Origin: a virus
Lineage: Duplodnaviria > Caudoviricetes
IMG/VR virus record: IMGVR_UViG_3300031670_000002
Location: 1-52,571 of that record
DNA: 52,571 nucleotides
Direction: 5' to 3' (one strand)
Below, in pieces: positions 12,410 to 29,620 of this stretch. Made by a program: the position numbers and the translations under genes. The notes under the pieces are model-generated. The model was not told the origin of the DNA. It did not search any database and saw only the letters and a list, made by a program, of their open reading frames with translations. The stretch's first letter is position 1; each line of letters starts with the position of its first letter.

Positions 12410-12562
12410 ATGGGTGGCAAACCGCTTAAAAGCACACCTGCTGACAGACGTTTGAAGGCCAATAAGAACAAGCCCGCGAAGCCGCCGGTCACAAAGCCGA
12501 CGCCGCCGCCCGCGAAACAGGCGTTTCCTGGCGCCGCTCCGCCGTTCAAGAAAGGCCAGTAA
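12410..12562 (+). CDS. Small Lys/Pro-rich basic peptide (50 aa)
   Basis: AAAGGA RBS; TAATG overlap with the next gene; MGGKPLKSTPADRRLKANK... Confidence 0.6.
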   Translation: MGGKPLKSTPADRRLKANKNKPAKPPVTKPTPPPAKQAFPGAAPPFKKGQ

Positions 12563-12780
12563 TGGCGAAAATAGACACGCGCAAAGCGATCCAGAAGCGG
12601 CGCACTGCCGACGAGATGCGCCGCGCCTATGCCGCGCTGTGTCCACTTGCGCCGTCGGATAGCGACGATCCTGCGATCATCCTGAATGATTGCTTTGAAG
12701 AACTGCTTGAAGCGCGGGCCATCATCGAAGACATGCGCGGCTTCGTGACGCAGTGGCACGCGCGTTTTACCAGACGATAA
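12562..12780 (+). CDS. Hypothetical protein
   Basis: Coupled ORF. Confidence 0.55.
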   Translation: MAKIDTRKAIQKRRTADEMRRAYAALCPLAPSDSDDPAIILNDCFEELLEARAIIEDMRGFVTQWHARFTRR

Positions 12781-12790
12781 GGAGCAAGGT

Positions 12791-13072
12791 ATGGCGAAAT
12801 ATCGCAAAAAGCCCGTCGTTATTGAGGCGTGGAAAACAGGCGAATTGCTGCATCTGGCAGCATATGATTTCTGGAATTTACCGGATCGTATCCGAGAGGC
12901 ATATGATAGGGTGGAGGTTGTTTTTACGCCATCTTCCATTCATATCAACACGCTTGAAGGAACCATGATTGCGAATCAAGACGATATGGTGATTCAAGGT
13001 GTCCAGAATGAATTATATCCCTGCAAACCGGACATTTTTGAAATGACCTACGAATTGGTAGAAAGCGAGTAG
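12791..13072 (+). CDS. Conserved phage protein (KYRKKPVV...TLEG...YPCKPDIF family)
   Basis: Widespread motif set; AAGGAG RBS. Confidence 0.8.
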   Translation: MAKYRKKPVVIEAWKTGELLHLAAYDFWNLPDRIREAYDRVEVVFTPSSIHINTLEGTMIANQDDMVIQGVQNELYPCKPDIFEMTYELVESE

Positions 13073-13074
13073 TT

Positions 13075-13398
13075 ATGGCAGTCTCAGATGCCCCGTGGGA
13101 CGGCGCGCCGTCTCAGTGGAAAGATACCGATGCCTATTGTGCGTCGTGCGCGCTCGACCTCAATCCGGCGGGCAAGCCGAAGACGCAGGATAATTGCAAG
13201 TTGCCGTACACGTTCCCCAACGGTGACATTAGCCGCGTGAGCGTGCATACGTGCGTCGCGGCCTTAGCCGGGGCGCGCGGCGGACTCAAAGGCGTCCCGG
13301 CGGCGGCCAAGAAAAAAGCGGCCAAACTCTTTCTGGGCCTGTACAAGACCGCACTCAAGGAAGAGCCGCCGGATAGCCTCAAGCAGATGGCGCAATGA
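13075..13398 (+). CDS. Head-module-associated hypothetical protein
   Basis: WDG...CKLPY...ALAGARGG domain, recalled as often fused to prohead proteases or head proteins. Confidence 0.6.
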   Translation: MAVSDAPWDGAPSQWKDTDAYCASCALDLNPAGKPKTQDNCKLPYTFPNGDISRVSVHTCVAALAGARGGLKGVPAAAKKKAAKLFLGLYKTALKEEPPDSLKQMAQ

Positions 13399-13588
13399 AC
13401 ACACCCGACACCCGCCGCGCAGGCATGGGCGACGTGATCGCCGCGCTCGCTCGTCTGCTCGGCATCAAGCAATTGCAGCACTGCGGCTGTACCGACCGGC
13501 AGGCGTGGCTCAACCGCCATCTACCGCTGCCGTTCCGCATCAAACGCCGCGCGGACGAACCGGCGGATTGGTAGGGAAGGACAAATCA

Positions 13589-13759
13589 ATGGCAGACCAG
13601 GAAGAAGAGCGCCCGATCACGCTGCGCTGGTTCGACAACCGAACTGGCAAAGAACACACGCTCTCAGACTCAAATGAACTCACCATCCGCTCGCGGCTCT
13701 TCACGCTTGTCCTTGACCTGATCAAAGGGCGAATCCGCGAGATACATGTCGTGCATTAA
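13589..13759 (+). CDS. Small hypothetical protein
   Basis: AAGGA RBS. Confidence 0.45.
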   Translation: MADQEEERPITLRWFDNRTGKEHTLSDSNELTIRSRLFTLVLDLIKGRIREIHVVH

Positions 13760-13772
13760 GGAAGGACGAATT

Positions 13773-14012
13773 ATGACACCAGACGAAGAAACCATCAAGC
13801 AACTGCTGAGCGATCGCATCGAAAACGATTTCTCGTATCACGCTCCGCAGGGTGATCAGGTCACTCGGTATAACAAGTTGCGCTACAAAGCGAAAGAGTT
13901 TGCTTTGCTCATTGCAGAGATTACACCGTATTCTCGTGAACAGTCGCTGGCGTTGACGCATCTTGAAGAAGCTGTGATGTTTGCCAACGCCGCCATTGCG
14001 CGGCACGAGTAA
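13773..14012 (+). CDS. Acb2/Tad1-like helical-hairpin protein (putative anti-defence sponge)
   Basis: FSYHAP...SREQSLALTHLEEAVMFANAAIAR signature. Confidence 0.65.
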   Translation: MTPDEETIKQLLSDRIENDFSYHAPQGDQVTRYNKLRYKAKEFALLIAEITPYSREQSLALTHLEEAVMFANAAIARHE

Positions 14013-14062
14013 CTATCGATCCTGTCCGTCGCTACCGATAATGCGTACAAGCGCACCACCGC

Positions 14063-14091
14063 TTGACAGCAGAAAGGAATCATCGTACAAT
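14063..14091 (+). promoter_or_regulatory. sigma70 consensus-like promoter overlapping the scaffold RBS
   Basis: TTGACA-N17-TACAAT. Confidence 0.55.
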
Positions 14092-14092
14092 T

Positions 14093-14773
14093 ATGGCAGA
14101 CGAACCGATTACCCCGGCGTCGCCCCAGGCGGGCGATCCACCGGCTGCACCTTCGCCCCAGGCGGGCAACACAACTCCACCAGAACCCCAGGCGGGCGAC
14201 GGACAAGAACCCATTTCACTAGCCGAGGCCAAAAAGCTGCGCTCGGAAGCGGCCAATTTGCGCGAACGCTTGAAAGCTGCTGACGCCAAAGCCAAAGAAC
14301 TCGATGATCTCAAAGCGCAGTTAGAGGCAGCCAATCTCAGCGACAAAGAAAAGCTGGAGCGGAAACTTGCCAAACTGCAAAGCGACCACGAGCAGGCAAC
14401 ACGCCAACTGCAAGAACGCACGATCCAATACGAGGTGCGTTTGCAAGCGGCACAGGCTGGCGTCAATCCGAAGCATCTGGACAAGGTGACGCGATTGATT
14501 GACTGGGCAGCCCTCGAGTATGACGACGATGGGCAGCCCACCAACGTCAAGACGCTGATTGACGCGCTCTTGGAGGATATGCCGGAACTGAAAACGCCTA
14601 CCGCGCCCGCGCCCACCGGCGGACAACCGCCGAAACCGCCGACGCCCGCGTTACCGGCCATGAACCCAGGCCGTGCCGCGATCACGCCGCCGACTGGCAA
14701 CGCCGGGCCGTTTGTACGCCCGTCGATCTCGGACGCCTACGCGCAAGCCGCACAGCAGCGCCGCGGCCAATAA
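14093..14773 (+). CDS. Capsid scaffolding protein
   Basis: AKKLRSEAANLR coiled coil, Pro-rich ends, directly before the capsid gene. Confidence 0.85.
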   Translation: MADEPITPASPQAGDPPAAPSPQAGNTTPPEPQAGDGQEPISLAEAKKLRSEAANLRERLKAADAKAKELDDLKAQLEAANLSDKEKLERKLAKLQSDHEQATRQLQERTIQYEVRLQAAQAGVNPKHLDKVTRLIDWAALEYDDDGQPTNVKTLIDALLEDMPELKTPTAPAPTGGQPPKPPTPALPAMNPGRAAITPPTGNAGPFVRPSISDAYAQAAQQRRGQ

Positions 14774-14821
14774 CAACGAAACATTCATCCTTCATGCCGG
14801 GAGGCAGCATAGGAGAACATT

Positions 14822-15868
14822 ATGACGATTGCCGCAGGGACGGTCACACTGGCGGATTACGCTCTGATGAGCAACAATCCGCTGGTCAAGGCCGTTACCT
14901 ACTCACTGATTGACAATGGATCGGTGCTGGCCGATATCCCCCTGGTCAGCAAGAAATCCTTCACCATCAACGGGGCGCGCTTCGAAGGCAATTTGCCGAC
15001 CGTCAACTGGTCGCAAATCAACGCCGAGGGCGTCAGCACCAAAGGCACGCCGACCGCCTACCAGGAACAAGTCTACATCCTGCGAAACTATATCGATGTG
15101 GACAAGTACATCGTCGAGGAAGAGAACAGCATCGTTGATCCGCGCACGACGCAGACCGAAGCGTACCTCAAAGCCCTCACCTACGATGTGAACTACAAGT
15201 TCATCCACAACGACCATGTCACCGGCGATGTGAACGCGCCCGTTGGCCTGGCCTACCGCATCAACAACGGCGGCACGTTCGGCGTGCGACCGGAGAACCA
15301 TATCGACGGCGGCGGCGTCGATGTGCGCGTCGCCAACGCGACGCAAGCCACCGCGAACCATTTCCTGTACCTGCTCGATCAACTGCTGTGGAGCGTCGAT
15401 AGTCCCGACGGCAACGGCGTCACGCTGTACATGAATGAAGTCATGCAGCGCCTGTTCGCGGCAAGCATTCGCACGATGGGAACCAGCGGCGGTTTTGCGA
15501 TTGTGCGCGACCAGTTCGACCGCGTGATCCAGATGTACAAAGGCGCGGTGGTGCGCGATATCGGCTACAAAGTCGATCAGCAGACCCGCATCATTCTCGG
15601 CGGCCCGACGTTTTCCGGCGGCCTGTCGGGCGAGGACAGCACCGGCAACAGCACCAGCACCTCGTCGGGGTCGATCTTCACGTCGATTTACGCCGTCAAC
15701 TACTCGACCGATCACTTCTTCGGTTGGCAGTTCGGGCCGCCGAATGTGCAAGACCTCGGCCTGATCTATAACGGCGTGATTTATAGAACGCTGATCGATT
15801 ATGCCGTCGGATTAGTCAACGCTAGTACCCGTTCTATTGCCCGTTTATACGATATTCTCGTCGATTAG
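14822..15868 (+). CDS. Major capsid protein
   Basis: 348 aa after the scaffold; LPTVNWSQIN...IDVDKY pattern; strong RBS and strongly biased codons. Confidence 0.85.
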   Translation: MTIAAGTVTLADYALMSNNPLVKAVTYSLIDNGSVLADIPLVSKKSFTINGARFEGNLPTVNWSQINAEGVSTKGTPTAYQEQVYILRNYIDVDKYIVEEENSIVDPRTTQTEAYLKALTYDVNYKFIHNDHVTGDVNAPVGLAYRINNGGTFGVRPENHIDGGGVDVRVANATQATANHFLYLLDQLLWSVDSPDGNGVTLYMNEVMQRLFAASIRTMGTSGGFAIVRDQFDRVIQMYKGAVVRDIGYKVDQQTRIILGGPTFSGGLSGEDSTGNSTSTSSGSIFTSIYAVNYSTDHFFGWQFGPPNVQDLGLIYNGVIYRTLIDYAVGLVNASTRSIARLYDILVD

Positions 15869-15879
15869 GAGGCGCGCCC

Positions 15880-16065
15880 ATGACCGCAAACGAAGTGCAA
15901 GAATTGCGCGCCGCCATTGATCGGGCGACCGCGCAAGATGCGCCGCTGCACAGCGTGCTGCACCTGCTCGTCGATCACCTATCCGCTGTCGCCTCGTCGG
16001 TCAGCCACGAGGCACAGGCGCTGGCACAGGCCGCGCAACCGGAGGAGAACTACCATGCCAACTGA
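15880..16065 (+). CDS. Small hypothetical protein
   Basis: AGGAGG RBS. Confidence 0.55.
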   Translation: MTANEVQELRAAIDRATAQDAPLHSVLHLLVDHLSAVASSVSHEAQALAQAAQPEENYHAN

Positions 16066-16453
16066 TGCCCTGATCGCGCTCCAGGCGAGCGTGACCAAAA
16101 CCGCCACGTTTAGCGGCGCGCCGCTGATCCTGCCCGCAGGCACGCCGCGCTGGCCGTTGGTGGCGCGCGTGATTTACAGCGCCGGAAGTTCCGGCACGGC
16201 GACCAGCGCGGTCATTTACAGCATTGACGTGTCGCGCGATGGCGGCTCCAACTTCTATACCGAAGTCGAGTCCGATCCGCTGACCCTGCCAACGTCCGGC
16301 GCGATTGCGGGCGAGCTTGCGCTGCCGTTCAGCCTGTCGCCAGCCATTGTCGCGGACGGCGTGCAAATCAAACTCACGGCGACGATTGCGCCTGGCAGTA
16401 GCGCGACGCCAACGATCACCTACCAGGGCGATATCATGCTCGGCAGACCGTAA
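16055..16453 (+). CDS. Putative head decoration/structural protein
   Basis: Beta-rich, Thr/Ala/Ser-rich; follows the capsid gene. Confidence 0.55.
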   Translation: MPTDALIALQASVTKTATFSGAPLILPAGTPRWPLVARVIYSAGSSGTATSAVIYSIDVSRDGGSNFYTEVESDPLTLPTSGAIAGELALPFSLSPAIVADGVQIKLTATIAPGSSATPTITYQGDIMLGRP

Positions 16454-16491
16454 CCGTCGTTACTCGCTCTCATTGAAAGGAAGCGTAGCCG

Positions 16492-17106
16492 ATGGCAGTG
16501 CGCACAACGATGGCGGCCTTGATCTTGCGAGTCAGATTGTTAATCAATGATCCGGCGGGCAGCAGCGAGACGTTTGCCGATCAAGACATTCAGGACGTGC
16601 TTGATGAGAGCCGCGTCGATGTGTTCAATGAACCGCTCATCCCAAAACCGACCTACACCGGCGCGACGATCAACTTTCTGGATTATTGGTCGCAAGTCGG
16701 CGGATGGGAAGACGGCTACGCATTAAAGCAATTCCTGATCACGCCGGTCACGCCGTCGCTGTTAGAGCCGATTGCCGGGCATTGGCAGTTCGCGGCCAGC
16801 ACGTTGCCGCCGGTGTACATCACAGGCTCCCTGCACGACGTGTACCGCGGCGCGGCAGACTTGCTGGAGCGGCAGGCCGCCATGTGGGTGTTGCGCTACG
16901 ACATGACCGTAGACGGCCAGTCGCTGCATCGCTCACAGGCGGCGCTCATGCTCACCAAACTGGCGGCCACGTACCGCACGAAACAGCGCCCGCAGTCGAT
17001 CACGGCGTTTCGCAGTGACACGCGCACGCAATCCGCGCTGGCGGGCATTGGACTTGGTCCGACGCAGTTGGATTATATGGGTTCGGGTAACAAGGGAGGC
17101 TCATAA
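16492..17106 (+). CDS. Head-tail adaptor
   Basis: RVRLLIND...FADQDIQDVL...DVYRGAADLLE; synteny. Confidence 0.75.
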   Translation: MAVRTTMAALILRVRLLINDPAGSSETFADQDIQDVLDESRVDVFNEPLIPKPTYTGATINFLDYWSQVGGWEDGYALKQFLITPVTPSLLEPIAGHWQFAASTLPPVYITGSLHDVYRGAADLLERQAAMWVLRYDMTVDGQSLHRSQAALMLTKLAATYRTKQRPQSITAFRSDTRTQSALAGIGLGPTQLDYMGSGNKGGS

Positions 17107-17252
17107 TGGCCTGTTCAACACACAAGGGCAGCAGCGTCAAGGCGGCGCACAAAGGCACGCGCGCCAAGAGCAGCGGCTCGGCCAAAACCGCGCACAAAGG
17201 CACGGCGGCGGCGCACAAGGGCAGCACGCACAAGGTCGCCAAGAAGTGCTGA
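17106..17252 (+). CDS. His/Lys-rich basic peptide (48 aa)
   Basis: GGGAGG RBS, TAATG overlap; MACSTHKGSSVKAAHKGTRAKSSGSAKTAHKGTAAAHKGSTHKVAKKC. Confidence 0.65.
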   Translation: MACSTHKGSSVKAAHKGTRAKSSGSAKTAHKGTAAAHKGSTHKVAKKC

Positions 17253-17260
17253 GGTGAGTT

Positions 17261-17626
17261 GTGGCGATTAGCGCGCAAGAGTTAGCAAGCATACAGGCCG
17301 ATTTGCAAGCGCAAGTCTGCGATAAGACGTGCATCATTCAGCGCGAGACAAGCAGCACGCCTGACGGCATCGGCAGCAGCGCGCCGACGTTCACGACGGT
17401 GGCAACGACGGTGGCGGGCGTGACCTTGCCGACGGCTAACGACTTGCAAAATTTCGCCTATGAGATTGGCGACAAGGCCACGTTCAAGGTGCATGTCCCG
17501 TATGGCACGAACGTCAAGGCGCTTGATCACCTGCTCATCGAAGCGCAGACGCTGGAGGTGCATATCTTGCTTGACCCGCATAGCGTGCCGGGGCTTTTAC
17601 CGTTGTTAGTCGTGGAGATCAAATAA
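17261..17626 (+). CDS. Head closure/stopper protein
   Basis: TCIIQR...DGIG...VPYGTNVKALD; synteny. Confidence 0.7.
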   Translation: MAISAQELASIQADLQAQVCDKTCIIQRETSSTPDGIGSSAPTFTTVATTVAGVTLPTANDLQNFAYEIGDKATFKVHVPYGTNVKALDHLLIEAQTLEVHILLDPHSVPGLLPLLVVEIK

Positions 17627-18027
17627 TGCCGATCATCAACCGCTTTCCGCAGATTGCCGCCAACTTGCGCCCGGTGGTGAGTCAGTTGGTGCGCAAGGCC
17701 GCATTTGACATTGCCGCCAATGCAGCATCAGGCGCGGCAGTGGATACTGGCTTTATGAAAAATAGCATCTACGTCGTCACGTCGGGCGACAGCACGTATG
17801 GCGGCGGCGGCACACCGCCAGGCGACTCGTTTCTCTTGCCAGAAGTGGCCGCGCCGTCCGATGATCTGTCGGCTATCGTGGCCTGCGGGGCGAATTATTC
17901 GGTGTATATCGAGATGGGGACGCGCTTCATGGCCGCGCAGCCGTTCTTCTTCCCGGCGGTTGACCAGGGCGCGGCAGCCTTTGCGAGCGTGGCGTCGGCG
18001 TTTGAGTCGCTGTTGGGGGCCGTATGA
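17626..18027 (+). CDS. HK97 gp10-like neck protein
   Basis: VDTGFMKNSI...YSVYIEMGTRFMAAQPFFFPA. Confidence 0.88.
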   Translation: MPIINRFPQIAANLRPVVSQLVRKAAFDIAANAASGAAVDTGFMKNSIYVVTSGDSTYGGGGTPPGDSFLLPEVAAPSDDLSAIVACGANYSVYIEMGTRFMAAQPFFFPAVDQGAAAFASVASAFESLLGAV

Positions 18028-18467
18028 GCGCGAGTGAGGCTGTGCTGGGCTTGCAATTCCTGTTCGGCATTCTCTCAGCAGACAGCACGCTCGCAAGTTA
18101 CGCGCCGGGCGGCGGCTTTCGCTCGCTTGCGCCTGACGGCACGGCCACGCCGTTCTGGGTCGTCAGTTTGCAATCGGCGGGCAAGGACAGCATGACCCAA
18201 CAGGCCGTGCGCTTGCTCGCTAACCCGCTGTTCCTGATCAAGGTGTCAGGCCCGGCCTCGCAGATGGCGGCCATTGCCGACGCGGCGGCACAAATCGATG
18301 TGCTGTTAGGCGGCGGGCAGGGCTTGCGCAACCGATCCGTGACCGGCGGCTGGATCGCGGCCTGCTACCGCGAAAGCGTGCATTTGCAGGACGAGGGCCC
18401 GATCAATGGCGTGGTGTGGTCGAATCTCGGCGGGTTGTACCGGATGGAGATCGAGCAAAGTTCGTAA
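18024..18467 (+). CDS. Tail terminator/completion protein
   Basis: LSADSTLA...APDGTATPF; synteny. Confidence 0.7.
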   Translation: MSASEAVLGLQFLFGILSADSTLASYAPGGGFRSLAPDGTATPFWVVSLQSAGKDSMTQQAVRLLANPLFLIKVSGPASQMAAIADAAAQIDVLLGGGQGLRNRSVTGGWIAACYRESVHLQDEGPINGVVWSNLGGLYRMEIEQSS

Positions 18468-18514
18468 TCCGATAGTCTATTCCTTCATGTCGTGAGACAG
18501 CATAGGAGCATAAT

Positions 18515-19804
18515 ATGACCTGGACACCAGAAGTTTCCGCGGTAAACCAACGGGTACAAGTTGGCGCGGAAAGTACCAGCGCGCTCGGCACGGCGGTCGC
18601 CTGTGGCAAGTACCTGGAGTGTTTTGATTTTACCTTTGGCATCAGTCCCGATGTCGTCTTTTACACCGCGACGGGGCATAAATACGCCACGGCGCAGGAA
18701 GAGAATATGGAATGGGTCGATGGCAGCGCATCCGGCTGGCTCGACTACAACGGCCTCATCTACATCTTCGGCGGCGCGATGGGCGCGACCACACCGGTTG
18801 CGCACGGCAGCAGCGCCGTCGCCAAAGACTGGGTCTTCACACCGCCGATCACCGGCTCCATCGTGCCGCAGACGCTCTCGTTTCAGCAGGGCGACGCGAT
18901 CCGGGCGCGCGAGTTCGCCTATGGCCTCTTCACCGAGGTTGGCTACAAAATCACGCGCAAAGAGACGACGCTCACCGCCAAACTGATCGGGCAGCCACTG
19001 ACCGACGATATCGTACTCACCTCCAATCCAACCACAATTGCCGTTGCGCCGATATCCGGCAAGCAGGTCAGCGTCTTTCTTGACACCACGCAGGCCGGGC
19101 TTGGCACGACGCAACTCTTGCGCGCCCTGGCCGTTGACTGGGCCTTCAATTCCATTTACGGCCAATTGTGGGTACTGAACCGCTCGACGGTGGGCTTCAC
19201 GGCGCACGTCGATAGCAAGCCGACCTGCACCGTCAAGATTTTGGAAGAAGCCAACGCGGAGGGCATGGCGTTCCTCTCGTACCTGCAAAGCGGCGTGACC
19301 TACTACCTGCGCGTGCAAGCGCAAGGCGCGTGCATCGACAATCTCACGAGCGTCTCGCTAGGTAGCCCATCGGCAGGCACATTCACCCTCACCTATGGCG
19401 GCCAAACCACGGCCACGATTGCTTACAACGCCGCGGCATCCGCCGTCGAGTCCGCACTGGCCTTGCTCAGCAGCATCCCATCCGGCGATGTCACCGTGAC
19501 CGGCTCAGCAGGCGGGCCGTATGCCATTGAACTGACGGGCGCGCTGCTCAACGCGCAAAGCGGCGGCGTGCTGTCCGCGATTACCGGATCAGGCACGGGC
19601 CTCACCGGCGGCACATTTGCCGTGACGGGCGAGCAGTCCTATCTCGCCATGACGCACGATATGGCAATCAAAGTCGGCAAGCCCTCCAATTTTGAGGATA
19701 GCGACGGCGTGTATGCGATTGAGTGGGAATGCACCGTCGTCGAGGATTCGACCTGGGGTCACGCGCAAATCTTGACCCTCACCAACCTGCTCACCAGCTT
19801 ATAA
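18515..19804 (+). CDS. Major tail tube protein with an inserted accessory domain
   Basis: VQVGAEST..GT N-terminus; lies before the chaperone and tape measure genes. Confidence 0.8.
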   Translation: MTWTPEVSAVNQRVQVGAESTSALGTAVACGKYLECFDFTFGISPDVVFYTATGHKYATAQEENMEWVDGSASGWLDYNGLIYIFGGAMGATTPVAHGSSAVAKDWVFTPPITGSIVPQTLSFQQGDAIRAREFAYGLFTEVGYKITRKETTLTAKLIGQPLTDDIVLTSNPTTIAVAPISGKQVSVFLDTTQAGLGTTQLLRALAVDWAFNSIYGQLWVLNRSTVGFTAHVDSKPTCTVKILEEANAEGMAFLSYLQSGVTYYLRVQAQGACIDNLTSVSLGSPSAGTFTLTYGGQTTATIAYNAAASAVESALALLSSIPSGDVTVTGSAGGPYAIELTGALLNAQSGGVLSAITGSGTGLTGGTFAVTGEQSYLAMTHDMAIKVGKPSNFEDSDGVYAIEWECTVVEDSTWGHAQILTLTNLLTSL

Positions 19805-19813
19805 GGAGCCTGT

Positions 19814-20167
19814 ATGCCAATTACCTTAGCCAAAATCACCAGCAACACCGCCGAGATCAGCATGATGGTCGGCGAGGATACGGTCAACGTCACGTACTAT
19901 CCAGGTCGCGTGACGGAGAAAACCATCGCGCAATTGCAGGGCTATGCCGATGTCAACCCCGATCACTTTGCCGAAACCGTGCATGAGGTCAACGTGCTGA
20001 TGGCAAGCCTCATCAAGAGTTGGGATGTGTACGAGGATGAGGCGCAAACCGTGATGTTTCCGCTTGACCCGGAGCGGTTGGCGGAACTGCCGTTCATGTT
20101 TCGCACCAAAGTGGTGGTGGCGATCATGCAGGATATCCGCCCGGAAGCGGACGCGCCGCAGATGTAG
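19814..20167 (+). CDS. Tail assembly chaperone (G-like)
   Basis: LIKSWDV motif; between tail tube and tape measure genes. Confidence 0.75.
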   Translation: MPITLAKITSNTAEISMMVGEDTVNVTYYPGRVTEKTIAQLQGYADVNPDHFAETVHEVNVLMASLIKSWDVYEDEAQTVMFPLDPERLAELPFMFRTKVVVAIMQDIRPEADAPQM

Positions 20168-20385
20168 AGCGCAAGAATCTGCGGCGGTATCTGGTCTTTA
20201 GCGCGCGCGGTGTCGAGTCGGACAATGTGACGTGTCCCGACTATTATCCGCTGTTCGTGGCGGCAGACCGCTGCCATTGCAAGCCGTGGGAACTGCTCGA
20301 CGTGCCGCTGTTCTGGCGCGAAAAGGCGCTCATCGTGCAGTCTGCCGAGAATGAGGCGCGCGAGCAAATCGACGCGCATAAGTAG
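20164..20385 (+). CDS. Tail assembly chaperone C-terminal extension (T-like, -1 frame)
   Basis: Open -1 frame without an ATG: ERKNLRRYL...CKPWELLDVPLFW. Confidence 0.55.
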   Translation, partial: VERKNLRRYLVFSARGVESDNVTCPDYYPLFVAADRCHCKPWELLDVPLFWREKALIVQSAENEAREQIDAHK

Positions 20386-20434
20386 GGAACATGGTCGCAC
20401 TCACGTCAGCACAATCGAATAAGGCGGTGCGCGC

Positions 20435-23173
20435 ATGGCGGTAATTGCCGCGCAATTGGAAGCCGTCGTCAGCGCAACGGGCGTGACCACGACGCAAGCG
20501 CAACTGGAGGAAATGGGCGCGGCTGCGGATGGCGCGGGCGTCGCACTTGATTCGATCAGCGGCGCGGCATCGGGCGCGGGCGCGGGCCTGGACACGGCAG
20601 GAACGGGCGCGGCGGGCGCGGGTACAGGCTTCGATACGATGGCGGGATCGGCGGATGCTGCCGCCACGGCACTGTCCGGGGTCGATGGCGCGCTCAGCAC
20701 GACGGCGGGCGCGGCAGATACGGCGGCGGCGGGCGCGACGGACGCAGGCGGCGGACTCGATGTGCTGGCGGGTAGCGCGGATGTGGCGGCGGCCAGCGTG
20801 ACTGGCGTTGATACGGCGCTCGGCGGCGCGGATGTGGCGATGGCGACCAGCGCGGCCTCGGCGGATGCGACCGCGACGCAATTCTCCGTGCTTGGCACGA
20901 TGAGCGATAGCACGGCGTCGAGTATGAAGTCGTTTATCGGCGGCATTCCGCTATTGGCTGCCGCCGCCGTGGTCGCGGTGGGCGCGCTCTCCGTCAAGAT
21001 GGCCGGTGACTTTCAAGAGAGCATGACGCAGCTCGTGACCGGCGCGGGCGAGAGCAAATCGAACCTGGACATGGTGAGCCAGGGCGTGCTGAATATGGCC
21101 GTGACCACTGGCACATCGACCAAAGACCTGTCAGACGGCCTCTATATGATCGAGAGTGCGGGGCAGCACGGGGCGCAAGGACTGGAAACCCTCAAAATCG
21201 CGGCAGAGGCGGCTAAGGTGGGAAATGCTTCTTTAGCCGATGTGGCAAACGGCGTGACGACCGCCATGACCGATTATGCGGGCGAAAATCTCACTGCCGC
21301 GCAGGCCGCCAACACGCTGATTGCGACGGTGGCGAGCGGCAAAACGCACATGCAGGACTTGTCACAGGCGCTCAGCACAATCCTTCCGGTTGCTAGTTCG
21401 GTGGGCGTGTCGTTCAACAACGTGATGGCGGCGATGGCAACCATGACCGGCGAGGGTGTCCCGGCAGCCGATGCGGCGACGTACTTGCGCCAGACCTTGA
21501 TGAGCCTGGAAAATCCCTCAACCAAAGGCGCGGCGGCACTCAAATCTATCGGCCTGACATCTGGACAGGTCGCATCGGAGATGAAAAAGTCGCTGCCTGA
21601 CGCCTTGAAACTGATTACCGAGCATTTGGCAAAGAAATTCCCGGTCGGCTCACAGAAGTACAACGCGGCCATCGCGGCCATCGCGGGCGGCACAAAGCAA
21701 ATGCAGGGCGTGCTTGACCTCACAGGAACGCATCTCAAAACGTTCGATAAGAACGTGAAAACGATTGCGAGCAGCGTCAAGCATGGCGGCAAGAGTGTCA
21801 CGGGCTGGTCGGAAACACAAAAAGATTTCAATTTCCAGATGGCGCAGGCGGGCGAAATCCTCCAAACCGGCATGATCCGCGCTGGCACGGCGTTGATGCC
21901 GATTGTGAGCAAGCTAGTCAGCGGCTTCGTGTCCTTTGTCGGTACGATGAGCCGATTCGTCGGGTGGCTCAGCAAAGGCTCGGCGGGCGCAACCATCGTG
22001 AAGGGCGTGCTGGCGGGCCTGGCTTTGGGTGTGCTGGCGTTCGTGGCGACGGCAATCCCGCCGCTGCTGGTGGCATTCGGCGCGTGGGCCGTGGCGGCAG
22101 GATCGGCGGCGCTCATGACGATCATTGCTGCCGCGCCGTTTATCGCCGTGGGTCTGGCTATCGGTATCCTGGTGGCGGGCATCGTGCTGGCAATTCAGCA
22201 CTGGGGAGCGATCGTCAAGTTTTTCGAGGGCTTGTGGAAGACCGTGTGGGGCGCGGTCTCGTCGTTCTTCGTCTCCATATGGTCAAGTATCAAGGGCTTT
22301 TTCGTCAATACCTGGAATAGCATCGTTGCGTTCTTTACGGGTGCGGTCAAGGCCGTGGTCAACTTCGTCAAGTCGCATTGGCAGTTACTGGTCTCAATCA
22401 TCGGCGGGCCAATTGTGGCAATAGCTTTGCTGATCATCACGCATTTCACGCAAATCAAGGCATTTTTTGTCCAAATTTGGTCAGATGTAAAAGCGGCATT
22501 TACGGCAGCACTGAACTTTTTGGTTTCGCTGGTCACGACGTTTGTGTCCAACGAGGTCAGAGGCTGGACGAATCTGTGGAATCGCGTGAAATCGATTGCC
22601 ACCTCGCTGTGGGCGGATGTGGTCGGCGTCTTTAACGCGGCGGTTGGGCGCGTGAAAAGCGCGATCTCGACGATCTGGAATGGCATCGTCTCCATCGTGA
22701 CGACGTGGCCGTCCAAAGCTCTGCAATGGGGCGTCGATATGATCAAGGGGCTGATTTCGGGCATCACCTCGATGATCGGCGGCATCGGCAGTGCGGTCGG
22801 GTCAATTGCCAGCAAGATCGCCGGGTTCCTGCACTTCAGCAAGCCCGATGTAGGGCCTTTGCGCGATGTGGATAAGTGGATGCCCGATCTGGGGGATAAG
22901 CTAGCGAAGTCGCTTACGGCGCAGATACCGAAATTGTCGGCGGCAGTGAACCTGCTGGTGAAGCCGGTGTCCAGCACGCTGTCCGGCATTGGCGCCACGA
23001 TGCCACGAATGCCGTCAGGCGCGGCCATGCTCCCCGGCAGCACGCCTGCACAGGCCGATCCCTATGCCGGTCGCCCGATCATCCTGCAAATCGACAGCAC
23101 GCAATTCGCGCGCGTGGTGATGCCGCTGGTGGCTCAGCAACTGCGGTATCGTGTCGGCGTGGGAGGGCGGTAA
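20435..23173 (+). CDS. Tape measure protein
   Basis: 912 aa, Ala/Gly-rich, TP901-type core, W/F-periodic C-terminal repeats. Confidence 0.92.
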   Translation: MAVIAAQLEAVVSATGVTTTQAQLEEMGAAADGAGVALDSISGAASGAGAGLDTAGTGAAGAGTGFDTMAGSADAAATALSGVDGALSTTAGAADTAAAGATDAGGGLDVLAGSADVAAASVTGVDTALGGADVAMATSAASADATATQFSVLGTMSDSTASSMKSFIGGIPLLAAAAVVAVGALSVKMAGDFQESMTQLVTGAGESKSNLDMVSQGVLNMAVTTGTSTKDLSDGLYMIESAGQHGAQGLETLKIAAEAAKVGNASLADVANGVTTAMTDYAGENLTAAQAANTLIATVASGKTHMQDLSQALSTILPVASSVGVSFNNVMAAMATMTGEGVPAADAATYLRQTLMSLENPSTKGAAALKSIGLTSGQVASEMKKSLPDALKLITEHLAKKFPVGSQKYNAAIAAIAGGTKQMQGVLDLTGTHLKTFDKNVKTIASSVKHGGKSVTGWSETQKDFNFQMAQAGEILQTGMIRAGTALMPIVSKLVSGFVSFVGTMSRFVGWLSKGSAGATIVKGVLAGLALGVLAFVATAIPPLLVAFGAWAVAAGSAALMTIIAAAPFIAVGLAIGILVAGIVLAIQHWGAIVKFFEGLWKTVWGAVSSFFVSIWSSIKGFFVNTWNSIVAFFTGAVKAVVNFVKSHWQLLVSIIGGPIVAIALLIITHFTQIKAFFVQIWSDVKAAFTAALNFLVSLVTTFVSNEVRGWTNLWNRVKSIATSLWADVVGVFNAAVGRVKSAISTIWNGIVSIVTTWPSKALQWGVDMIKGLISGITSMIGGIGSAVGSIASKIAGFLHFSKPDVGPLRDVDKWMPDLGDKLAKSLTAQIPKLSAAVNLLVKPVSSTLSGIGATMPRMPSGAAMLPGSTPAQADPYAGRPIILQIDSTQFARVVMPLVAQQLRYRVGVGGR

Positions 23174-23175
23174 CT

Positions 23176-26100
23176 ATGACCGTCGCTCTCACGGCTTTTG
23201 GCACATCAATCGCATCGACCACGCTGCCGACGGCGGGAACGCTGGCAACGACGACGTGGCGCGGCGCGGACGGTGGCATCGACACGAAAATCAGCAATGC
23301 GCTGGGCTATGGCGAACTGACGGCGCTGGGAACGAACACGGTGTGGGCTGCGGCAGCCGGGCCGATTGGCAGTATCGCGCCATCGGGCCTCGGCTGGCTG
23401 CTCGATAGCGCGCTCTTGTTTGGGCAGACGATTGAGAACGGGCTGTGGACGCCGAGCGTGACCTTGCGCGTGACGCTGGGGACGATCACGGCGGATATGT
23501 ACTTTCGTTCGTGGATATACGACACCTCCACAGGCGTGTACACGCCGATTGGCACGCTGCTGCTCTCAGGGCAAACCATCAGCTCGAAGACGACGTACAC
23601 GTGGGCCGCGCTGGGTCTGTCCGCCGCGTCATTCAGTTTCACGCAATATTTGTATCTCGATTGCATCCTCAACGTGCTGGGCAACTCCAATAGTTCGGGG
23701 TCAAGCGCGCAATTCGCGGTACATCTGTCCTCGGTGGCAGGCGCGGGCGTGGCGGGCGATACGGCGGTCAGCACGCCGGGATTCGCGCCAACCTCGCTCA
23801 TGTACGGCGTGACGACGCTGGAGAAGTACGTCAGCAGCACGACGGCGGCGGAACTGGCGGCGCTAGGGCCGGTCACGGTGCGCCTGCAATGCCACAATAA
23901 GGATCACGACAAGACGCAAGTGGTGAATACCACCAGCGTGACGGCGATCACGGCAGGCGTCAACACGGTCACGCCCGCATCAATGGTCAACATCACCACC
24001 TCGCAGTTGCTGTTCATTGCCGATCCGGCGGGAACCTCGGAATTTGTGACGCCGTCAGGGGTGACTGGCACGTCGTTTACGGCGACGTTTGCCAATGCGC
24101 ATAGCGCGAGCGCGTACACGATTACGGGCGAAACCTTTGACTGGACATCGATGGATACGGCGGTCGATCTGTTTGTGGCGCTTAAATGTCGCATCGTGCT
24201 GACGATAGAAGGTTTTGCGAACTGGTGGCTTGATCCGACATGCAGCTTGCCGATGTGGCAAGGGATGCAAATGTGGGGCTATCAGATCATCCAACGCTAC
24301 GGGTCGGTGATCTGCGGCGTCGAGCAGGGCAATGAAGAATTTGCCTACGTCAGCGGCGCGTGTCGCGATGCGAGCGTCTATTACGGCGTGATTTCGCAGT
24401 CCTACCCGTTCTTGAAACCGCTCAATCCATCGCTCACGGTGGGCTGTTTTGGCTATACGTCCTACAGCGGCAACATCGGCAATAATGGCGATCCAGGCTA
24501 CTGGTTCAACGCGCTCTATGCGCTCGGCGGCGGCCTGTACATGGATTATGCCAACTTCCACTACTATAACGCCGGCCATGACCCGCTGGACGCCAATCCC
24601 GGAGGCGCGCCCGCACTGCTGACGATTGTGGCGGCCATCAATAGCGCGATGGTGAGTAACGGCGTGAATTTGCCTATTCGCGTGACCGAGTTCGGCTGGG
24701 AGGGCAAAGGCAGCAAGGGCAGCACAACCTGCCCGCACGATGTTGGCCCAGCGGTGCAAGGCGCGTATCTGGTGGAGGCGTACACGCTGCTCAAAACCGT
24801 GTCCAATGTGGAGGCGGGCTATCTGTATACCTGCGGCGGCGGCACGTTCTACGACTGCCACGATATCTACGGATTGTCAAGCTATACCACGGTGCAAGCA
24901 TACTTTGCGATTGTGCCGACGCCGCCAGCACCGCCGGGGCCGCCAGTGGTCGGCACCGGGACGTATAGCGTGCAGACGGGCGGCGTGACGCTGTTCGTAT
25001 TGGCCGGCACGCTCAGCATCGATAACACCATCGGCAAACGCTCGCAGGCGTCGTTCACGGCGTACACGAATCCGCCGCTGCACTTTGTGCAATATCAGCA
25101 GGTACAAATCTACGACGCGAGCGGTACGCTGGTGTTTAGCGGCTACATCACGACGCCGCAAGAGCAAAAGCCGGGCTTCCAGAATAGCCTGATCCACACG
25201 ATCACCTGCTGCGACCAGCACTGGCTGGCGGATAAGCGTGTCATGGCGGCGGCATTTACGAACAAGACGTGCGGCGAGATGGTGCAGTGGATTGTCACCA
25301 ACATTCTCGCGCAAGAGGGCGTGACGATTGGGCAGATTTACGACGGCATTCCGCCCGCAACGACGCTCTATCCGCAGACGACGCTCTACCCTGGCGGTAA
25401 CGTCGGGCTTGTGCCGCAAGCCAATTTCGTGTACTGCTCGGTCTCGCAAGCCTTAGACGCGCTGGTCAGCCAGGCGAGCGCGGCGGGCATCCCCTACTAC
25501 TGGCAAATCGACGAAAACAAGGCGCTGTGGTTCGTGCCGTACACGGCTATCGTGAATACGGCGGTCGTCGATGGCACGCAGATCGAACTGGTGCAGAACC
25601 CGCCGACGCTGACACGCGCCAATCCGACGTACAGGAACACGCAGTACATCGGCGGCGGCGTGCAGCAAACGGCGACGCAAACGGAAATCAGGACAGGCGA
25701 CGGCACGACGCAATCGTGGGCGATGGGCTACGAGATGAGCGCCGATCCGACGGCCTCGCCGCCGGTGATTAGCATCGATCTCGGCAATGGCAGTGGCGGC
25801 TATTTGGGCTACACGGTGCAGTCGGTCGGGTTGAAAGGCACATCAGGACAGGCGTTCTACTGGGCGGCAGGCGACGCGATTATTGCGCAGGACAGCAGCG
25901 GCACGAAACTGCGCGGCGCGCCCTATAACGACCTGCTGAAAGTCGTGTACACCGGCCAATATGAGACGATGATCCTGGCGCAAAACGCGGCGCAAGTGGC
26001 CTATCAGGCGCAAGTGGACGGCACATCAGGCATTGTGGAGGAGGTCGAGACGGACGCCACGATTACCAGCATCGCCAACGGCCTGTCAGAGGCGGGGCAA

Positions 26101-26511
26101 CTGCTGACGCGCTACGGCGTGCAAGGCGCGCTCTTGCAATTCACGACACTGCAAAGCGGCTTTGCACAGGGACAGTTGATTACGGTCAATTTGCCGATGT
26201 ATGGCCTCTCCAACGCGCAAATGCTGATTGAGGAGGTGTCCGCGAGCGACCAGACGGATTCATTCAATATCTGGTTCACGGTCAAGGCGGTGCAGGGGCC
26301 GTATGACGTGAGTTGGATCGATTTCTTTATCAAGACGTTCGGGGCAAACGCGCCCGCCAACTCGATCAATGTGGGGCTATCCCAAAATGTGCCGTTCCTG
26401 GCCTCGTTCCCTATGGCAATCTCTGTCGCCATGAGCCTGACTGTCAACGTCTATGCTTGCCCTATCGTCAATACGACGCTGTATCCCAGCGCGACCAATT
26501 ACCCTTGCTGA
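23176..26511 (+). CDS. Tail/baseplate protein containing a clan GH-A glycoside hydrolase domain
   Basis: Follows the tape measure gene; EQGNEE (acid/base), NFHYY and RVTEFGW (nucleophile) motifs; Pro linker, then a tail hub-like C-terminal region. Confidence 0.75.
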   Translation: MTVALTAFGTSIASTTLPTAGTLATTTWRGADGGIDTKISNALGYGELTALGTNTVWAAAAGPIGSIAPSGLGWLLDSALLFGQTIENGLWTPSVTLRVTLGTITADMYFRSWIYDTSTGVYTPIGTLLLSGQTISSKTTYTWAALGLSAASFSFTQYLYLDCILNVLGNSNSSGSSAQFAVHLSSVAGAGVAGDTAVSTPGFAPTSLMYGVTTLEKYVSSTTAAELAALGPVTVRLQCHNKDHDKTQVVNTTSVTAITAGVNTVTPASMVNITTSQLLFIADPAGTSEFVTPSGVTGTSFTATFANAHSASAYTITGETFDWTSMDTAVDLFVALKCRIVLTIEGFANWWLDPTCSLPMWQGMQMWGYQIIQRYGSVICGVEQGNEEFAYVSGACRDASVYYGVISQSYPFLKPLNPSLTVGCFGYTSYSGNIGNNGDPGYWFNALYALGGGLYMDYANFHYYNAGHDPLDANPGGAPALLTIVAAINSAMVSNGVNLPIRVTEFGWEGKGSKGSTTCPHDVGPAVQGAYLVEAYTLLKTVSNVEAGYLYTCGGGTFYDCHDIYGLSSYTTVQAYFAIVPTPPAPPGPPVVGTGTYSVQTGGVTLFVLAGTLSIDNTIGKRSQASFTAYTNPPLHFVQYQQVQIYDASGTLVFSGYITTPQEQKPGFQNSLIHTITCCDQHWLADKRVMAAAFTNKTCGEMVQWIVTNILAQEGVTIGQIYDGIPPATTLYPQTTLYPGGNVGLVPQANFVYCSVSQALDALVSQASAAGIPYYWQIDENKALWFVPYTAIVNTAVVDGTQIELVQNPPTLTRANPTYRNTQYIGGGVQQTATQTEIRTGDGTTQSWAMGYEMSADPTASPPVISIDLGNGSGGYLGYTVQSVGLKGTSGQAFYWAAGDAIIAQDSSGTKLRGAPYNDLLKVVYTGQYETMILAQNAAQVAYQAQVDGTSGIVEEVETDATITSIANGLSEAGQLLTRYGVQGALLQFTTLQSGFAQGQLITVNLPMYGLSNAQMLIEEVSASDQTDSFNIWFTVKAVQGPYDVSWIDFFIKTFGANAPANSINVGLSQNVPFLASFPMAISVAMSLTVNVYACPIVNTTLYPSATNYPC

Positions 26512-26519
26512 GGTGAATT

Positions 26520-26903
26520 ATGACCGCCATTACGAAAACAGATGCTGGCTTAGAACTGTGGCGCGACGGCGCGGCAGGCGCGAATAACCCGATGATTACC
26601 TACGTCGCACTGGGAAACAGCACCACGCCGCCGACGGCAGGGGATACCGCACTTGGGAACGAGACATTCAGAAAAGCGGTCACGACGTATACCGACGGCA
26701 GCACCGGAGAAATTCTCGTCACGATGTACTTAGGCCCAAGCGACGATATTGGCGCCGATATCGAGGAAGTGGGCTTTGTGGGCGGCAGCACCGCCAACGC
26801 GCAACCGAATACCGGTATCCTCATCGCCCACGGCTTATGGAGTCACAATCCAAAGGCTGGGACGGAGAGCATCACTTTTACGCTTGATATGACCTTTAGT
26901 TAG
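26520..26903 (+). CDS. Minor tail/baseplate protein
   Basis: ITYVALGNSTTPPTAGDTALGNETFRK...EEVG motif. Confidence 0.7.
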   Translation: MTAITKTDAGLELWRDGAAGANNPMITYVALGNSTTPPTAGDTALGNETFRKAVTTYTDGSTGEILVTMYLGPSDDIGADIEEVGFVGGSTANAQPNTGILIAHGLWSHNPKAGTESITFTLDMTFS

Positions 26904-26936
26904 TCCTTCACGCCGCGAGGCAGTTAGGAGCATGAT

Positions 26937-27467
26937 ATGGGAACGTATAGCCCGGCGTATGTCGCGCCGTACACGAACACCGGTTCACCCTGGACGAATG
27001 GCGGCGCGCCCGGTATTAGCGCGGCATTTCTCGATGCCATCGAGGGCTGGGTGTACCAGGTCGATAACCCGCCGGATGTGGTGCTGACTGGCACGACGGC
27101 AGGGACGGCTACGCTCTATGAGACGGTGTACGCCAACCGCAAAGAGGTACTGCTGATCTTCGCGGGCTACGAGAATAGCGGCAGCACGCCGCAATCGATT
27201 GTGCTGCCGCACGCCTTCACGTTCATGGCCTGGGCGACGTCCGGCGGCTTTACCACGAGCAGCAGCAACGGCATCCAATTCTTGCTGTCAGGCACGGCGC
27301 AAAGCATCCACACCTGCGGTAGTTTGGCGGGCGGATCGTTCGCCACATCGACGACGCTGCTGCGCTATTGCCCAGGCGCGGAGGTGCTGGCCGGTTTCGA
27401 CACGCTCTCGCTTGAGGGCAGTTATAGCGGCACGGCCTCCGGCATCGTGCGCATTCTCGGCAATTAA
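26937..27467 (+). CDS. Putative tail fibre/structural protein
   Basis: WTNGGAPGISAAFLDAIE N-terminal motif; beta-rich. Confidence 0.6.
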   Translation: MGTYSPAYVAPYTNTGSPWTNGGAPGISAAFLDAIEGWVYQVDNPPDVVLTGTTAGTATLYETVYANRKEVLLIFAGYENSGSTPQSIVLPHAFTFMAWATSGGFTTSSSNGIQFLLSGTAQSIHTCGSLAGGSFATSTTLLRYCPGAEVLAGFDTLSLEGSYSGTASGIVRILGN

Positions 27468-27475
27468 GGAGAGGC

Positions 27476-27664
27476 ATGATGCTTTTGCTGACGCTGGCGC
27501 GCGTCGCCACGGTGCTGATTTTTCTGACGACAGCCGTGGGCGGGCCGTATGCCATCCTGCTGCTGCGGCGCTTTATCGCGGCGCATACGCTGGCGCACGG
27601 CATCCTGATGGCGGAGCTTGAGGCGCTGCGGCGTCGCGTGACGCACCTTGAGGAACGGCTATGA
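27476..27664 (+). CDS. Small membrane protein with coiled coil
   Basis: N-terminal TM; AAGGAG RBS. Confidence 0.55.
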   Translation: MMLLLTLARVATVLIFLTTAVGGPYAILLLRRFIAAHTLAHGILMAELEALRRRVTHLEERL

Positions 27665-27996
27665 CCAGTTGGGTCATGTACCTGACCATCATCAATCTGA
27701 TCGTGATCATCGCGGGCGCGATTGGCGGCTATCTGGCGTACCGGGCGGCGTTTTCGCGCGCGAAGGACGAGATTACCGAGCGCGTGACGGGGCTGCTCAA
27801 AACGGAAAACGAGGTCTTACAACGCCGCGTCAAGACCGTGGAAGGGCGATTGCGCCTGCTGATCAACTGGTTTGCCAAGCAGGGCGTGGTGATTGAATTT
27901 GACGGCGAATCGCTGACGATCCGCGACACGAAAAACGGCGTGACCAGCGTGCATCAGAGCGAAACGCAACCGAGAGAAAGCGAGAAAGAAGTATGA
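27661..27996 (+). CDS. Membrane-anchored coiled-coil protein (holin-like)
   Basis: Single N-terminal TM plus coiled coil. Confidence 0.55.
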   Translation: MTSWVMYLTIINLIVIIAGAIGGYLAYRAAFSRAKDEITERVTGLLKTENEVLQRRVKTVEGRLRLLINWFAKQGVVIEFDGESLTIRDTKNGVTSVHQSETQPRESEKEV

Positions 27997-28610
27997 CAAG
28001 CGAAATCAATGCCAATCCGAATTTTCCCAACGGCCTGTTGCCGCTCTATGACCCGACGAACGGGCAGGATGCGGTAGCATGGCAAGCGTCCTACGTTTCG
28101 ACCGATTCTGCCACGAGCATCAAGTACGCGGCGGGGGTGATGGTTGATAAAGTAACTAACGCGATCCTGGCAGGCAAAGCCTTTGTTGCGTCAACCGGCT
28201 CGCAGACCAGTTCCGGCACGTTTACCGAAGGTCTGTCCGTCTTTAATCCGACGGGTTCTGGGAAGACGCTGTACTTTTTCAGCGCGAAGGTTGGGGTGGC
28301 ATCGGCGCGGATACACAGTCTGTACCTCGTGCCAACCACCGATCCGGCGTTGGGGACGGCGATCACGCCGATCAACGGACTGGCAGGCGGTAGCGCGTCG
28401 GTTGCCAGCGCATCCTACACCAATGCGGGCGCAAACATCTCGACCAGCGGCGATACGCTCATTGAAACGCTGTACACGCTGGCCGACAATACGACGGACT
28501 TTTTGGATGTCGATGAGGTCAAAGTGTGTCCGCCCGGCTATGGCATACTGATGGCCGTCTCGACGGCGACCAATGCCTGGGCGGCAACACTCAAATGGTG
28601 GGAAGCCTAG
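27993..28610 (+). CDS. Hypothetical beta-rich (structural-like) protein
   Basis: Thr/Ser/Ala-rich; NPTGSGKTLY...WWE. Confidence 0.6.
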   Translation: MTSEINANPNFPNGLLPLYDPTNGQDAVAWQASYVSTDSATSIKYAAGVMVDKVTNAILAGKAFVASTGSQTSSGTFTEGLSVFNPTGSGKTLYFFSAKVGVASARIHSLYLVPTTDPALGTAITPINGLAGGSASVASASYTNAGANISTSGDTLIETLYTLADNTTDFLDVDEVKVCPPGYGILMAVSTATNAWAATLKWWEA

Positions 28611-28699
28611 TCTTTGGCGGTCAGTGTTTCGATGACGGCAATGGCAAGCGCGAGCGCGGTCATTGAAACACTCGCAAGAGCGACGATCAATGATTTCAT
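28607..28699 (-). CDS. 30-aa hydrophobic peptide
   Basis: AAGGAGG RBS; TG-G-TATACT at 28723-28731; MKSLIVALASVSMTALALAIAVIETLTAKD. Confidence 0.55.
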   Translation of the reverse strand: MKSLIVALASVSMTALALAIAVIETLTAKD

Positions 28700-28765
28700 C
28701 AAATACCTCCTTGTTTTTGGGAAGTATACCACATGTGCGCTCGCTCGTGCGTTACATAACTAGGA

Positions 28766-29026
28766 GTGATGAATCGTGAGGGAATCATGCCGTATGCCGT
28801 GAGTCGCGGGCTACGTCGCGTGGCGTTCCAGCCGTTCAACGTCAACACGAACGCGCACATGCCGACGTTCACGCACCCGTGGCGCGCGGCAACCGGCGAT
28901 GAGATTGTGACCTGGAATACGGCGGCGCGGGCGTTCGTGCATGAGCCGCGCTACGAACAGGCGATCTATGAGCGCGTGTGCGACTGCGGCATTGCGCCGG
29001 GCGAAACGTGCAATTGCGCGATGTGA
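28766..29026 (+). CDS. Hypothetical protein with Cys-rich C-terminus
   Basis: ORF track; exact start uncertain. Confidence 0.45.
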   Translation: MMNREGIMPYAVSRGLRRVAFQPFNVNTNAHMPTFTHPWRAATGDEIVTWNTAARAFVHEPRYEQAIYERVCDCGIAPGETCNCAM

Positions 29027-29058
29027 TGGATAGAAAACATCTAAAGGAGAATCGAACT

Positions 29059-29619: not shown

Positions 29620-29620
29620 T

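Follow-up and report, generated by a model that had tools for sequence, protein, structure and literature searches.

A GNRA-hairpin leader motif before major virion genes of a soil siphovirus

The motif and the genes behind it

Tailed phages need hundreds of capsid and tail-tube subunits compared with only a few copies of the products of neighboring genes, and these proteins are encoded on one long transcript. To our knowledge, only a handful of model phages offer a good picture of how this subunit ratio comes about. Here, we describe a short sequence element located directly in front of three genes in the genome of a soil siphovirus, the IMG/VR record IMGVR_UViG_3300031670_000002. The record is complete, with terminal repeats present, and its entire sequence of 52,571 bp (G+C ca. 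59%), termed the window in the following, was analyzed. A first-pass annotation of this DNA had pointed to three similar strings of 27-28 nt, beginning at positions 14788, 18481, and 26904, and had proposed that they act as a cis-regulatory RNA on high-copy structural genes. All three strings are present on the plus strand at these positions, and in each of them the AGGAG forming the Shine-Dalgarno sequence (SD) ends exactly 6 nt before an ATG (14822, 18515, and 26937).

The first copy (14788..14815) consists of UCCU at 14788-14791, the hairpin UGCC-GGGA-GGCA at 14795-14806, and the SD AGGAG at 14811-14815. In the second copy (18481..18508), the corresponding elements are UCCU at 18481-18484, UGUC-GUGA-GACA at 18488-18499, and the SD at 18504-18508; in the third (26904..26930), they are UCCU at 26904-26907, CGCC-GCGA-GGCA at 26911-26922, and the SD at 26926-26930. 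This third copy is one base shorter, contains a C.A mismatch at the outermost pair of the inner hairpin, and abuts the TAG stop codon of the upstream gene (26901-26903). The shared layout reads UCCUUCA-Y, a 3-4 bp stem closed by a C-G pair on a GNGA loop, AG-(Y)WW-AGGAG, 6 nt, and ATG. As had been noted from the letters, the three loops GGGA, GUGA, and GCGA are all GNRA tetraloops. A degenerate 20-mer with up to three mismatches matched only these 3 sites in the 52,571 bases, compared with a mean of 0.08 matches in shuffled versions of the window, none of which (0/100) reached three or more. A covariance model (R1) run with filters off also returned only 3 window sites, scoring 53.0, 52.0, and 43.2 bits for copies 1 to 3; the next match in the window reached 12.2 bits (E 0.71).

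The gene behind the first copy (14822..15868, plus strand) encodes the major capsid protein (phrog_212, 2.8e-34; PF20911, 1.9e-11), and the one behind the second (18515..19804, plus strand) the major tail protein (phrog_10909, 1.5e-12), which bears out the capsid and tail labels given earlier. The third is a gene call in the tail-end gene block (26937..27467, plus strand) for a family-less 176-aa protein. For its former label, putative fibre, we found no family match in either PHROG or Pfam; an atlas search returned unnamed clusters only, together with a weak lead to Mtd_N at 0.76. Directly upstream of the three copies lie genes for a scaffold protein (plus strand, ATG at 14093, TAA stop at 14771-14773), a 147-aa tail-region protein, and a 127-aa protein with weak tail-fibre matches, respectively. 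Since their stop codons precede the motif by 14, 13, and 0 nt, all three copies are intergenic within a co-directional gene block. Between the scaffold stop and copy 1, base composition reveals an A+T-rich tract (14774..14787, plus strand). Across 10 motif copies, the 12 nt upstream average 70% A+T, compared with about 42% genome-wide, and an A+T fraction of at least 0.66 occurs in 8 of these 10 copies versus 3 of 37 control offsets.

Folding of the three bare motifs with RNAfold yielded the same minimum free energy (MFE) structure: an outer helix between UCCU and AGGA, an internal loop, and an inner 4-bp GNRA hairpin. The pairing between the 5' TCCT and the AGGA of the SD that the first-pass annotation had suggested is therefore recovered in all three predictions, and the element would fold in two tiers, with the SD paired at the base. 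MFE values were -11.1, -9.0, and -9.3 kcal/mol for copies 1-3 (z-scores -2.64, -2.69, and -1.91), and 4, 3, and 6 of 200 shuffles, respectively, folded as well as the bare motif. The AGGA is predicted to pair with UCCU in the MFE structure of all type-i copies folded (12/12).

Relatives, stem covariation, and mobile DNA

With the covariance model, we found 14 copies, 12 of them distinct, on 7 viral or metagenome contigs including the window. All 14 lie on the coding strand with a start codon 6-10 nt downstream; the distance from SD to ATG is 6 nt in most copies and 9-10 nt in L113, L005_4446, L004_3208, and L005_4495. An exact scan of viral contigs located the motif in L004, L005, and L006. 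Scans in which the stem was left free returned 47 loci from viral contigs, with no further true member among them, and 40 loci from metagenomes, including the new members L103, L111, and L113; three additional loci (L096, L098, and L101) appear to repeat L004, L006, and L005, with which they agree in length and position. A fully paired stem combined with a start codon 6-9 nt downstream was confined to family members in these scans, and unrelated matches mostly had 0-2 pairs. Retrieval by means of the tail protein yielded 27 loci; the model detected no new copy in the 21 of them that were new and were searched, or in five other loci included in that search (L197-L201).

Database searches returned no known counterpart within their scope. 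The window has no match in Rfam 15 at the gathering threshold, and a search of 9 kb around the sites at E<=5 against this collection, which includes ROSE and FourU thermometers and r-protein leaders, gave two chance matches located on the other strand or elsewhere. Among 50,697 GenBank phage records, blastn with 41 nt returned no match below E 2, and 6 kb of window DNA used as query returned a single 90-nt match. The exact pattern occurs 69 times in 185,579 species-representative bacterial genomes. None of the 69 matches has AGGAG plus ATG downstream and their stem positions are random (TG 26, CG 19, TA 14, CA 10), which identifies them as chance matches that point to neither a prophage nor a host.

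The compensatory C-G to T-A change noticed earlier between the window copies is present: the pair C10-G17 of the capsid and third copies is U10-A17 in the tail copy. Of 12 distinct alignment rows, 7 have C-G and 5 have U-A at this pair, and half-changed rows do not occur. Cells with changes on both sides number 5, compared with 1.9 in shuffles (0/500 as high). The exchange is also apparent at a single orthologous site, since the tail gene is preceded by GUC-GUGA-GAC in the window versus GCC-GGGA-GGC in L111 and L113. Variation in the loop, which is not palindromic, is limited to the N of GNGA.

A sister motif, identified in six contigs (L026, L028, L010, L024, L199, and L200), begins with CUCACUAC, shares the hairpin, and has a purine tract at its end. 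Its hairpin supplies two further variants, G-C changed to G.U and C-G as the outer pair, and its outer helix is a different one (CUC.../...GAG), with flanks that co-vary as UUAC/GUAA versus GCC/GGGC. The sister motif of L200 stands before a capsid gene from phrog_283, a third family. When both motif types are pooled, the covariation score amounts to 0.227 compared with 0.134 in shuffles and was reached by 5 of 500. Judged by such comparisons, conservation, the type of loop, and a single clean compensation give good support to the predicted hairpin.

Conservation of the motif can be uncoupled from that of the adjacent genes. The tail-gene region of L111 is 63.6% identical to that of the window, in an alignment that starts exactly at the motif. 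For L103, similarity to window DNA is confined to 39 nt at the motif (94.9%), and a 28-mer of this contig is identical to a window copy. The L103 scaffold protein has 40% identity over 85 residues, and the gene behind the motif encodes a major head protein of phrog_267 without BLASTP similarity to the window capsid protein. The motif has thus been preserved in lineages whose flanking genes diverged or were swapped for unrelated capsid genes, and it tracks the role of a gene, that of a major subunit, rather than a gene family.

Across both motif types, 8 of 14 hairpin positions are invariant, which exceeds the need of a bare stem. This constancy, the presence of the same element before three unrelated genes of one phage, and the occurrence of an identical 28-mer beside genes that are 40% identical or unrelated speak for an alternative in which the GNRA hairpin would be the operator of a dedicated phage or host RNA-binding protein that opens or closes a masked SD, making the three genes a post-transcriptional regulon. 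Protein-bound RNA hairpins have precedents in lambda N/boxB, Mu Com/mom, and the MS2 coat protein and its operator. Arguing against such an operator, none of the 52 window ORFs (open reading frames) scanned, out of roughly 90 rough gene calls, matched an RNA-binding family. A CsrA-type version fails, as GGA lies in the loop of the GGGA copies only and not in GUGA or GCGA. We regard an operator as quite unlikely.

In L004, whose tail protein is 99% identical to that of the window, an insertion marks the motif. The DNA of this contig matches the window to the end of the motif and then continues into a gene on the opposite strand for a 205-aa GIY-YIG endonuclease (phrog_314, 1.7e-27). The insert separates motif and tail gene and has motif copies on its flanks (L004:2361-3250; the layout is the same in L005, at L005:3502-4537). 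Past the endonuclease gene of L004, the motif occurs for a second time; a 17-codon ORF comes next and then a third copy, of degenerate sequence (ACCU...AGGGGGG). In both contigs, this ORF starts behind one copy, crosses the next, and ends with a stop codon that overlaps the ATG of the tail gene (ATGA); as it spans a motif copy, translation would run across the element. Next to the L004 insert, the first 30 nt of the tail gene diverge, which looks like co-conversion. A DNA contig from run X2 matches 17148-18508 and likewise departs from the window exactly at the motif end. As far as these junctions indicate, the motif is a junction for mobile DNA, with a copy retained before the tail gene after insertion.

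Such breakpoints, and the unrelated capsid genes found behind the same motif, would also arise if the motif were a DNA-level landmark for recombination or homing, serving the exchange of modules and endonuclease cassettes without any regulatory role. A mere landmark is, however, difficult to reconcile with an element that always lies on the coding strand in fixed SD-to-ATG geometry and that is conserved at the endonuclease-free loci L006, L103, L111, and L113. Homology-driven exchange alone also leaves unexplained why the stem changes by compensation and why the GNRA loop stays constant. We consider this explanation highly improbable.

Hairpins before capsid genes extend beyond the motif family. 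The capsid-gene leaders of 31 relatives are nearly all structured, with a median fold z-score of -0.90 (n=31) versus 0.00 for other leaders of the same loci (n=174; Mann-Whitney p 8e-5), in a comparison whose 50-nt leaders clip long hairpins and whose sequences are related to one another. A large group of loci (L008, L011, L016, L018, L019, L022, L027, L029, L036, L043, and L197) has a three-tier hairpin that ends just 5' of GAUAGGAG and stands before capsid and tail genes alike, following the pattern UAUCUC..CUCAGC..hairpin..UUGAG..GGGGAUGAUAGGAG. It comprises 14 predicted pairs, 9 of which show compensatory changes. The core of this leader, GAUAGGAGC, resembles the start-associated sequences (SAS) of mycobacteriophages, and L197 is binned in a Ktedonobacterales genome, a weak host hint. 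Another group of leaders forms long hairpins that pair CUCCUG with CAGGAG. Given that capsid leaders are structured across the relatives, the whole lineage is characterized by hairpins that adjoin or cover the ribosome site of its major virion genes, and the window motif is, on this comparison, the local and compact form of this trait.

Genomic context and candidate mode of action

Could the motif instead be a promoter? This alternative, which the first-pass annotation had itself named, envisions a DNA promoter or promoter-plus-leader cassette, i.e., internal promoters that boost high-copy genes via the host polymerase and a phage sigma factor, with transcription starting at the ATG (leaderless) or within the motif. 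The phage does encode a sigma-70-family factor with regions 1.2, 2, 3, and 4 (33809-34681, minus strand; phrog_351, 4.4e-79). All three window copies contain TAGGAG at -12 to -7 from the A of the ATG, with TCCTTC 15-16 nt further upstream, and an A+T-rich tract lies upstream of the motif. In addition, the endonuclease cassette of L004 and L005 has motif copies on its downstream side, comparable to T4 endonuclease genes, which embed promoters for the gene that follows (PMC2988022).

Several observations are at odds with these would-be boxes. The segment that would be their spacer is the most conserved part of the motif and changes by compensation, and the sister motif retains this hairpin yet alters both boxes. 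The distance to the ATG varies (mostly 6 nt, 9-10 nt in four copies), T-12 is missing in copies with AAAGGAG, and an SD occupies the same place in nearly every window gene. A sigma-70 scan of 12000-30000 (-35/-10 boxes with 16-18 nt spacer) returned 9 sites, none of them at 14788, 18481, or 26904. The sigma factor is primary-like, and a near-consensus TTGACA-17-TACAAT is located elsewhere, at 14063-14091. Two metatranscriptome runs cover parts of the region, as assembled contigs only, and one RNA-library contig spans 14665-14825 through the motif, which is weak evidence because DNA carry-over is possible. The promoter is thus weakened by spacer compensation, the boxes of the sister motif, and the scan; we retain it, as an unlikely explanation, because the phage encodes a sigma-70-family factor.

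The site at 14063-14091 matches the consensus at 11 of 12 positions. Only 1 nt separates its -10 box from the ATG of the scaffold gene (14093), so that a start from this site would fall within the first codons of that gene. Further upstream, two opposite-strand ORFs without known family (12274-12939 and 13134-13520, minus strand) break the plus-strand packaging/head block, and as a consequence of this interruption the genes from scaffold to tail must have a separate promoter.

Three further candidates were rejected. Coupling to terminating ribosomes is not a general mechanism, since the gap from stop codon to motif spans 0, 13, 14, ~19, ~20, and ~26 nt. A promoter for a T7-like polymerase finds no support, as none of the 52 window ORFs scanned matched an RNA polymerase. 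An intrinsic terminator does not fit either, as 0 of 21 listed terminator sites fall at the motif and the hairpin is followed by AGCAUAGGAG instead of a U run.

Strand specificity, a fixed geometry relative to the SD, and conservation at positions where a promoter spacer could vary suggest that the element works as RNA. We therefore lean, at somewhat better than even odds, toward a portable leader module that acts in cis on the polycistronic mRNA of the virion genes and determines how abundant subunits are translated or what becomes of their mRNA. It would begin with an A/U-rich tract and an anti-SD UCCU, continue past a small internal loop into the 4-bp C(GNRA)G hairpin, and end with the SD AGGAG, a 6-nt spacer, and AUG. 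Acting post-transcriptionally, such a module could set the output of abundant virion subunits within one long late transcript. In the version that we judge likeliest, cleavage within the A/U-rich tract or the internal loop on the 5' side would leave an mRNA segment that starts with a protective hairpin immediately followed by a strong SD and that would be stable and well translated. We favor a processing and stabilizing module of this kind because masking of the SD is moderate, the 12 nt upstream are A+T-rich, and ribosome coupling is not general. A near alternative is gating in the style of phage T4, in which read-through transcripts would stay silent because their SD is masked, and opening of the SD would depend on a factor or on an RNA that is shorter or has been processed.

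Apart from the sigma factor, a number of results weigh against an RNA leader. With flanks included, the fold z-scores become -2.84, -1.27, and -0.32, and are thus unremarkable for copies 2 and 3. In predicted SD pairing (0.50-0.58), the three genes occupy middle ranks among 61 window genes. Within the family, a single pair covaries. The UCCU/AGGA helix shows no covariation, and its outermost pair is disrupted in 3 of 12 rows with no matching change on the opposite side; the remaining pairs are invariant. Pooling with the sister motif still leaves one pair changed on both sides (3 versus 7 distinct rows), and as the copies are related, the independent covariation events may number one or two. 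The covariation statistics fall short of the standard of a formal covariation test. Among the distant relatives, z-scores below -2 were obtained for only 7 of 31 capsid leaders (10 of 174 other leaders) with the 50-nt leader. The original proposal of a cis-regulatory RNA accordingly keeps its strand-specific, start-codon-linked, and conserved hairpin, with compensation found in homologues; its covariation rests on one pair and its SD masking is not distinctive in rank.

A bolder conjecture, which we put forward as a long shot, combines several of these elements: the hairpin might be bound as an operator by a dedicated regulator, which would unmask the ribosome site late in infection and unite capsid, tail tube, and tail-end protein in one post-transcriptional regulon for virion stoichiometry, and the module might be mobile among unrelated capsid families, with homing cassettes using it as landing pad and to restore expression of the displaced gene. 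More generally, a leader that is compact, is defined by its sequence, accompanies the role of major subunit, and has structural counterparts in distant relatives offers a handle for mutational tests. In addition, it might help to annotate major virion genes in uncultivated soil phages, and it could find use as a portable part for gene expression.

Other features of the window concern the phage more broadly. Just upstream of the scaffold gene, an 88-aa protein (13746-14012) contains an Acb2/Tad1 hairpin domain (PF24729, 1.1e-20), a family of anti-CBASS/anti-Thoeris sponges. A 708-aa head-morphogenesis-like protein (9664-11790) carries Hint/intein-type domains (PF13403, PF14890) and may represent an intein in a virion gene. 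The 153-aa protein at 2480-2941 matches phrog_645, labeled 'Rnase E'. This label appears doubtful because the gene position suggests a small terminase subunit, and Pfam, which returned only a weak helix-turn-helix, does not confirm it. An ORF of 1111 aa among the tail genes has no family match. Two integrase-like ORFs (phrog_216, phrog_1), one full-length at 50764-51675 and one short at 46471-46854 (minus strand), suggest a temperate lifestyle. No tRNA was found in the 52,571-bp window.

Comparison with known systems

The nut sites of phage lambda, located just after early promoters, combine boxA with a GNRA-like boxB hairpin that is bound by N. The window motif shares with them, as a loose structural likeness, a short linear element, a small GC stem, and a GNRA-type loop (C(GNGA)G in 14/14 copies), and differs in sitting against the SD of late genes. 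In the T7 gene 10 leader and in the 5' stem-loop stabilizers of ompA and Bacillus STAB-SD, hairpins are found at a mapped 5' end. Like these, the motif places a hairpin and then a strong SD before the most abundant virion protein. Unlike in these leaders, its SD itself belongs to the predicted outer helix.

Sequestering the ribosome-binding site (RBS) in a hairpin is a well-documented strategy of phages, as for the late genes soc, e, 25, 26, I-TevI, and segB on long transcripts of phage T4 (PMC2988022). Both systems pair the SD in a local hairpin on a long polycistronic RNA, by prediction in the present case. Relief in T4 comes from late promoters that give RNAs lacking the 5' arm, and the T4 hairpins are individual sequences (PMC2988022). 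By contrast, our scan placed no promoter-like site at the motifs, and the window motif is one shared sequence.

The closest resemblance is to the SAS of cluster K phages and their extended form (ESAS). These, too, are short conserved AGGAG repeats that share one orientation and precede the start codons of genes of differing families by a few bases. SAS lie 3-7 bp before the start codon, compared with 6 nt in the window copies and 6-10 nt in relatives. Some SAS also have an inverted repeat beside them, and SAS function was unproven as of late 2025. The 13-bp SAS consensus GGGATAGGAGCCC has 0 window matches at up to two mismatches. SAS occupy the non-structural right arm with 11-19 copies per genome, in contrast to three copies placed only before what we count here as virion genes. 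For the 17-bp ESAS repeats, the original authors found no support for RNA pairing, whereas the window motif has a predicted 4-bp GNRA hairpin with a compensatory change. On these features, the motif is best classed as a leader of the start-associated, RBS-pairing type that is closest to the cluster K SAS and stands outside the SAS family itself.

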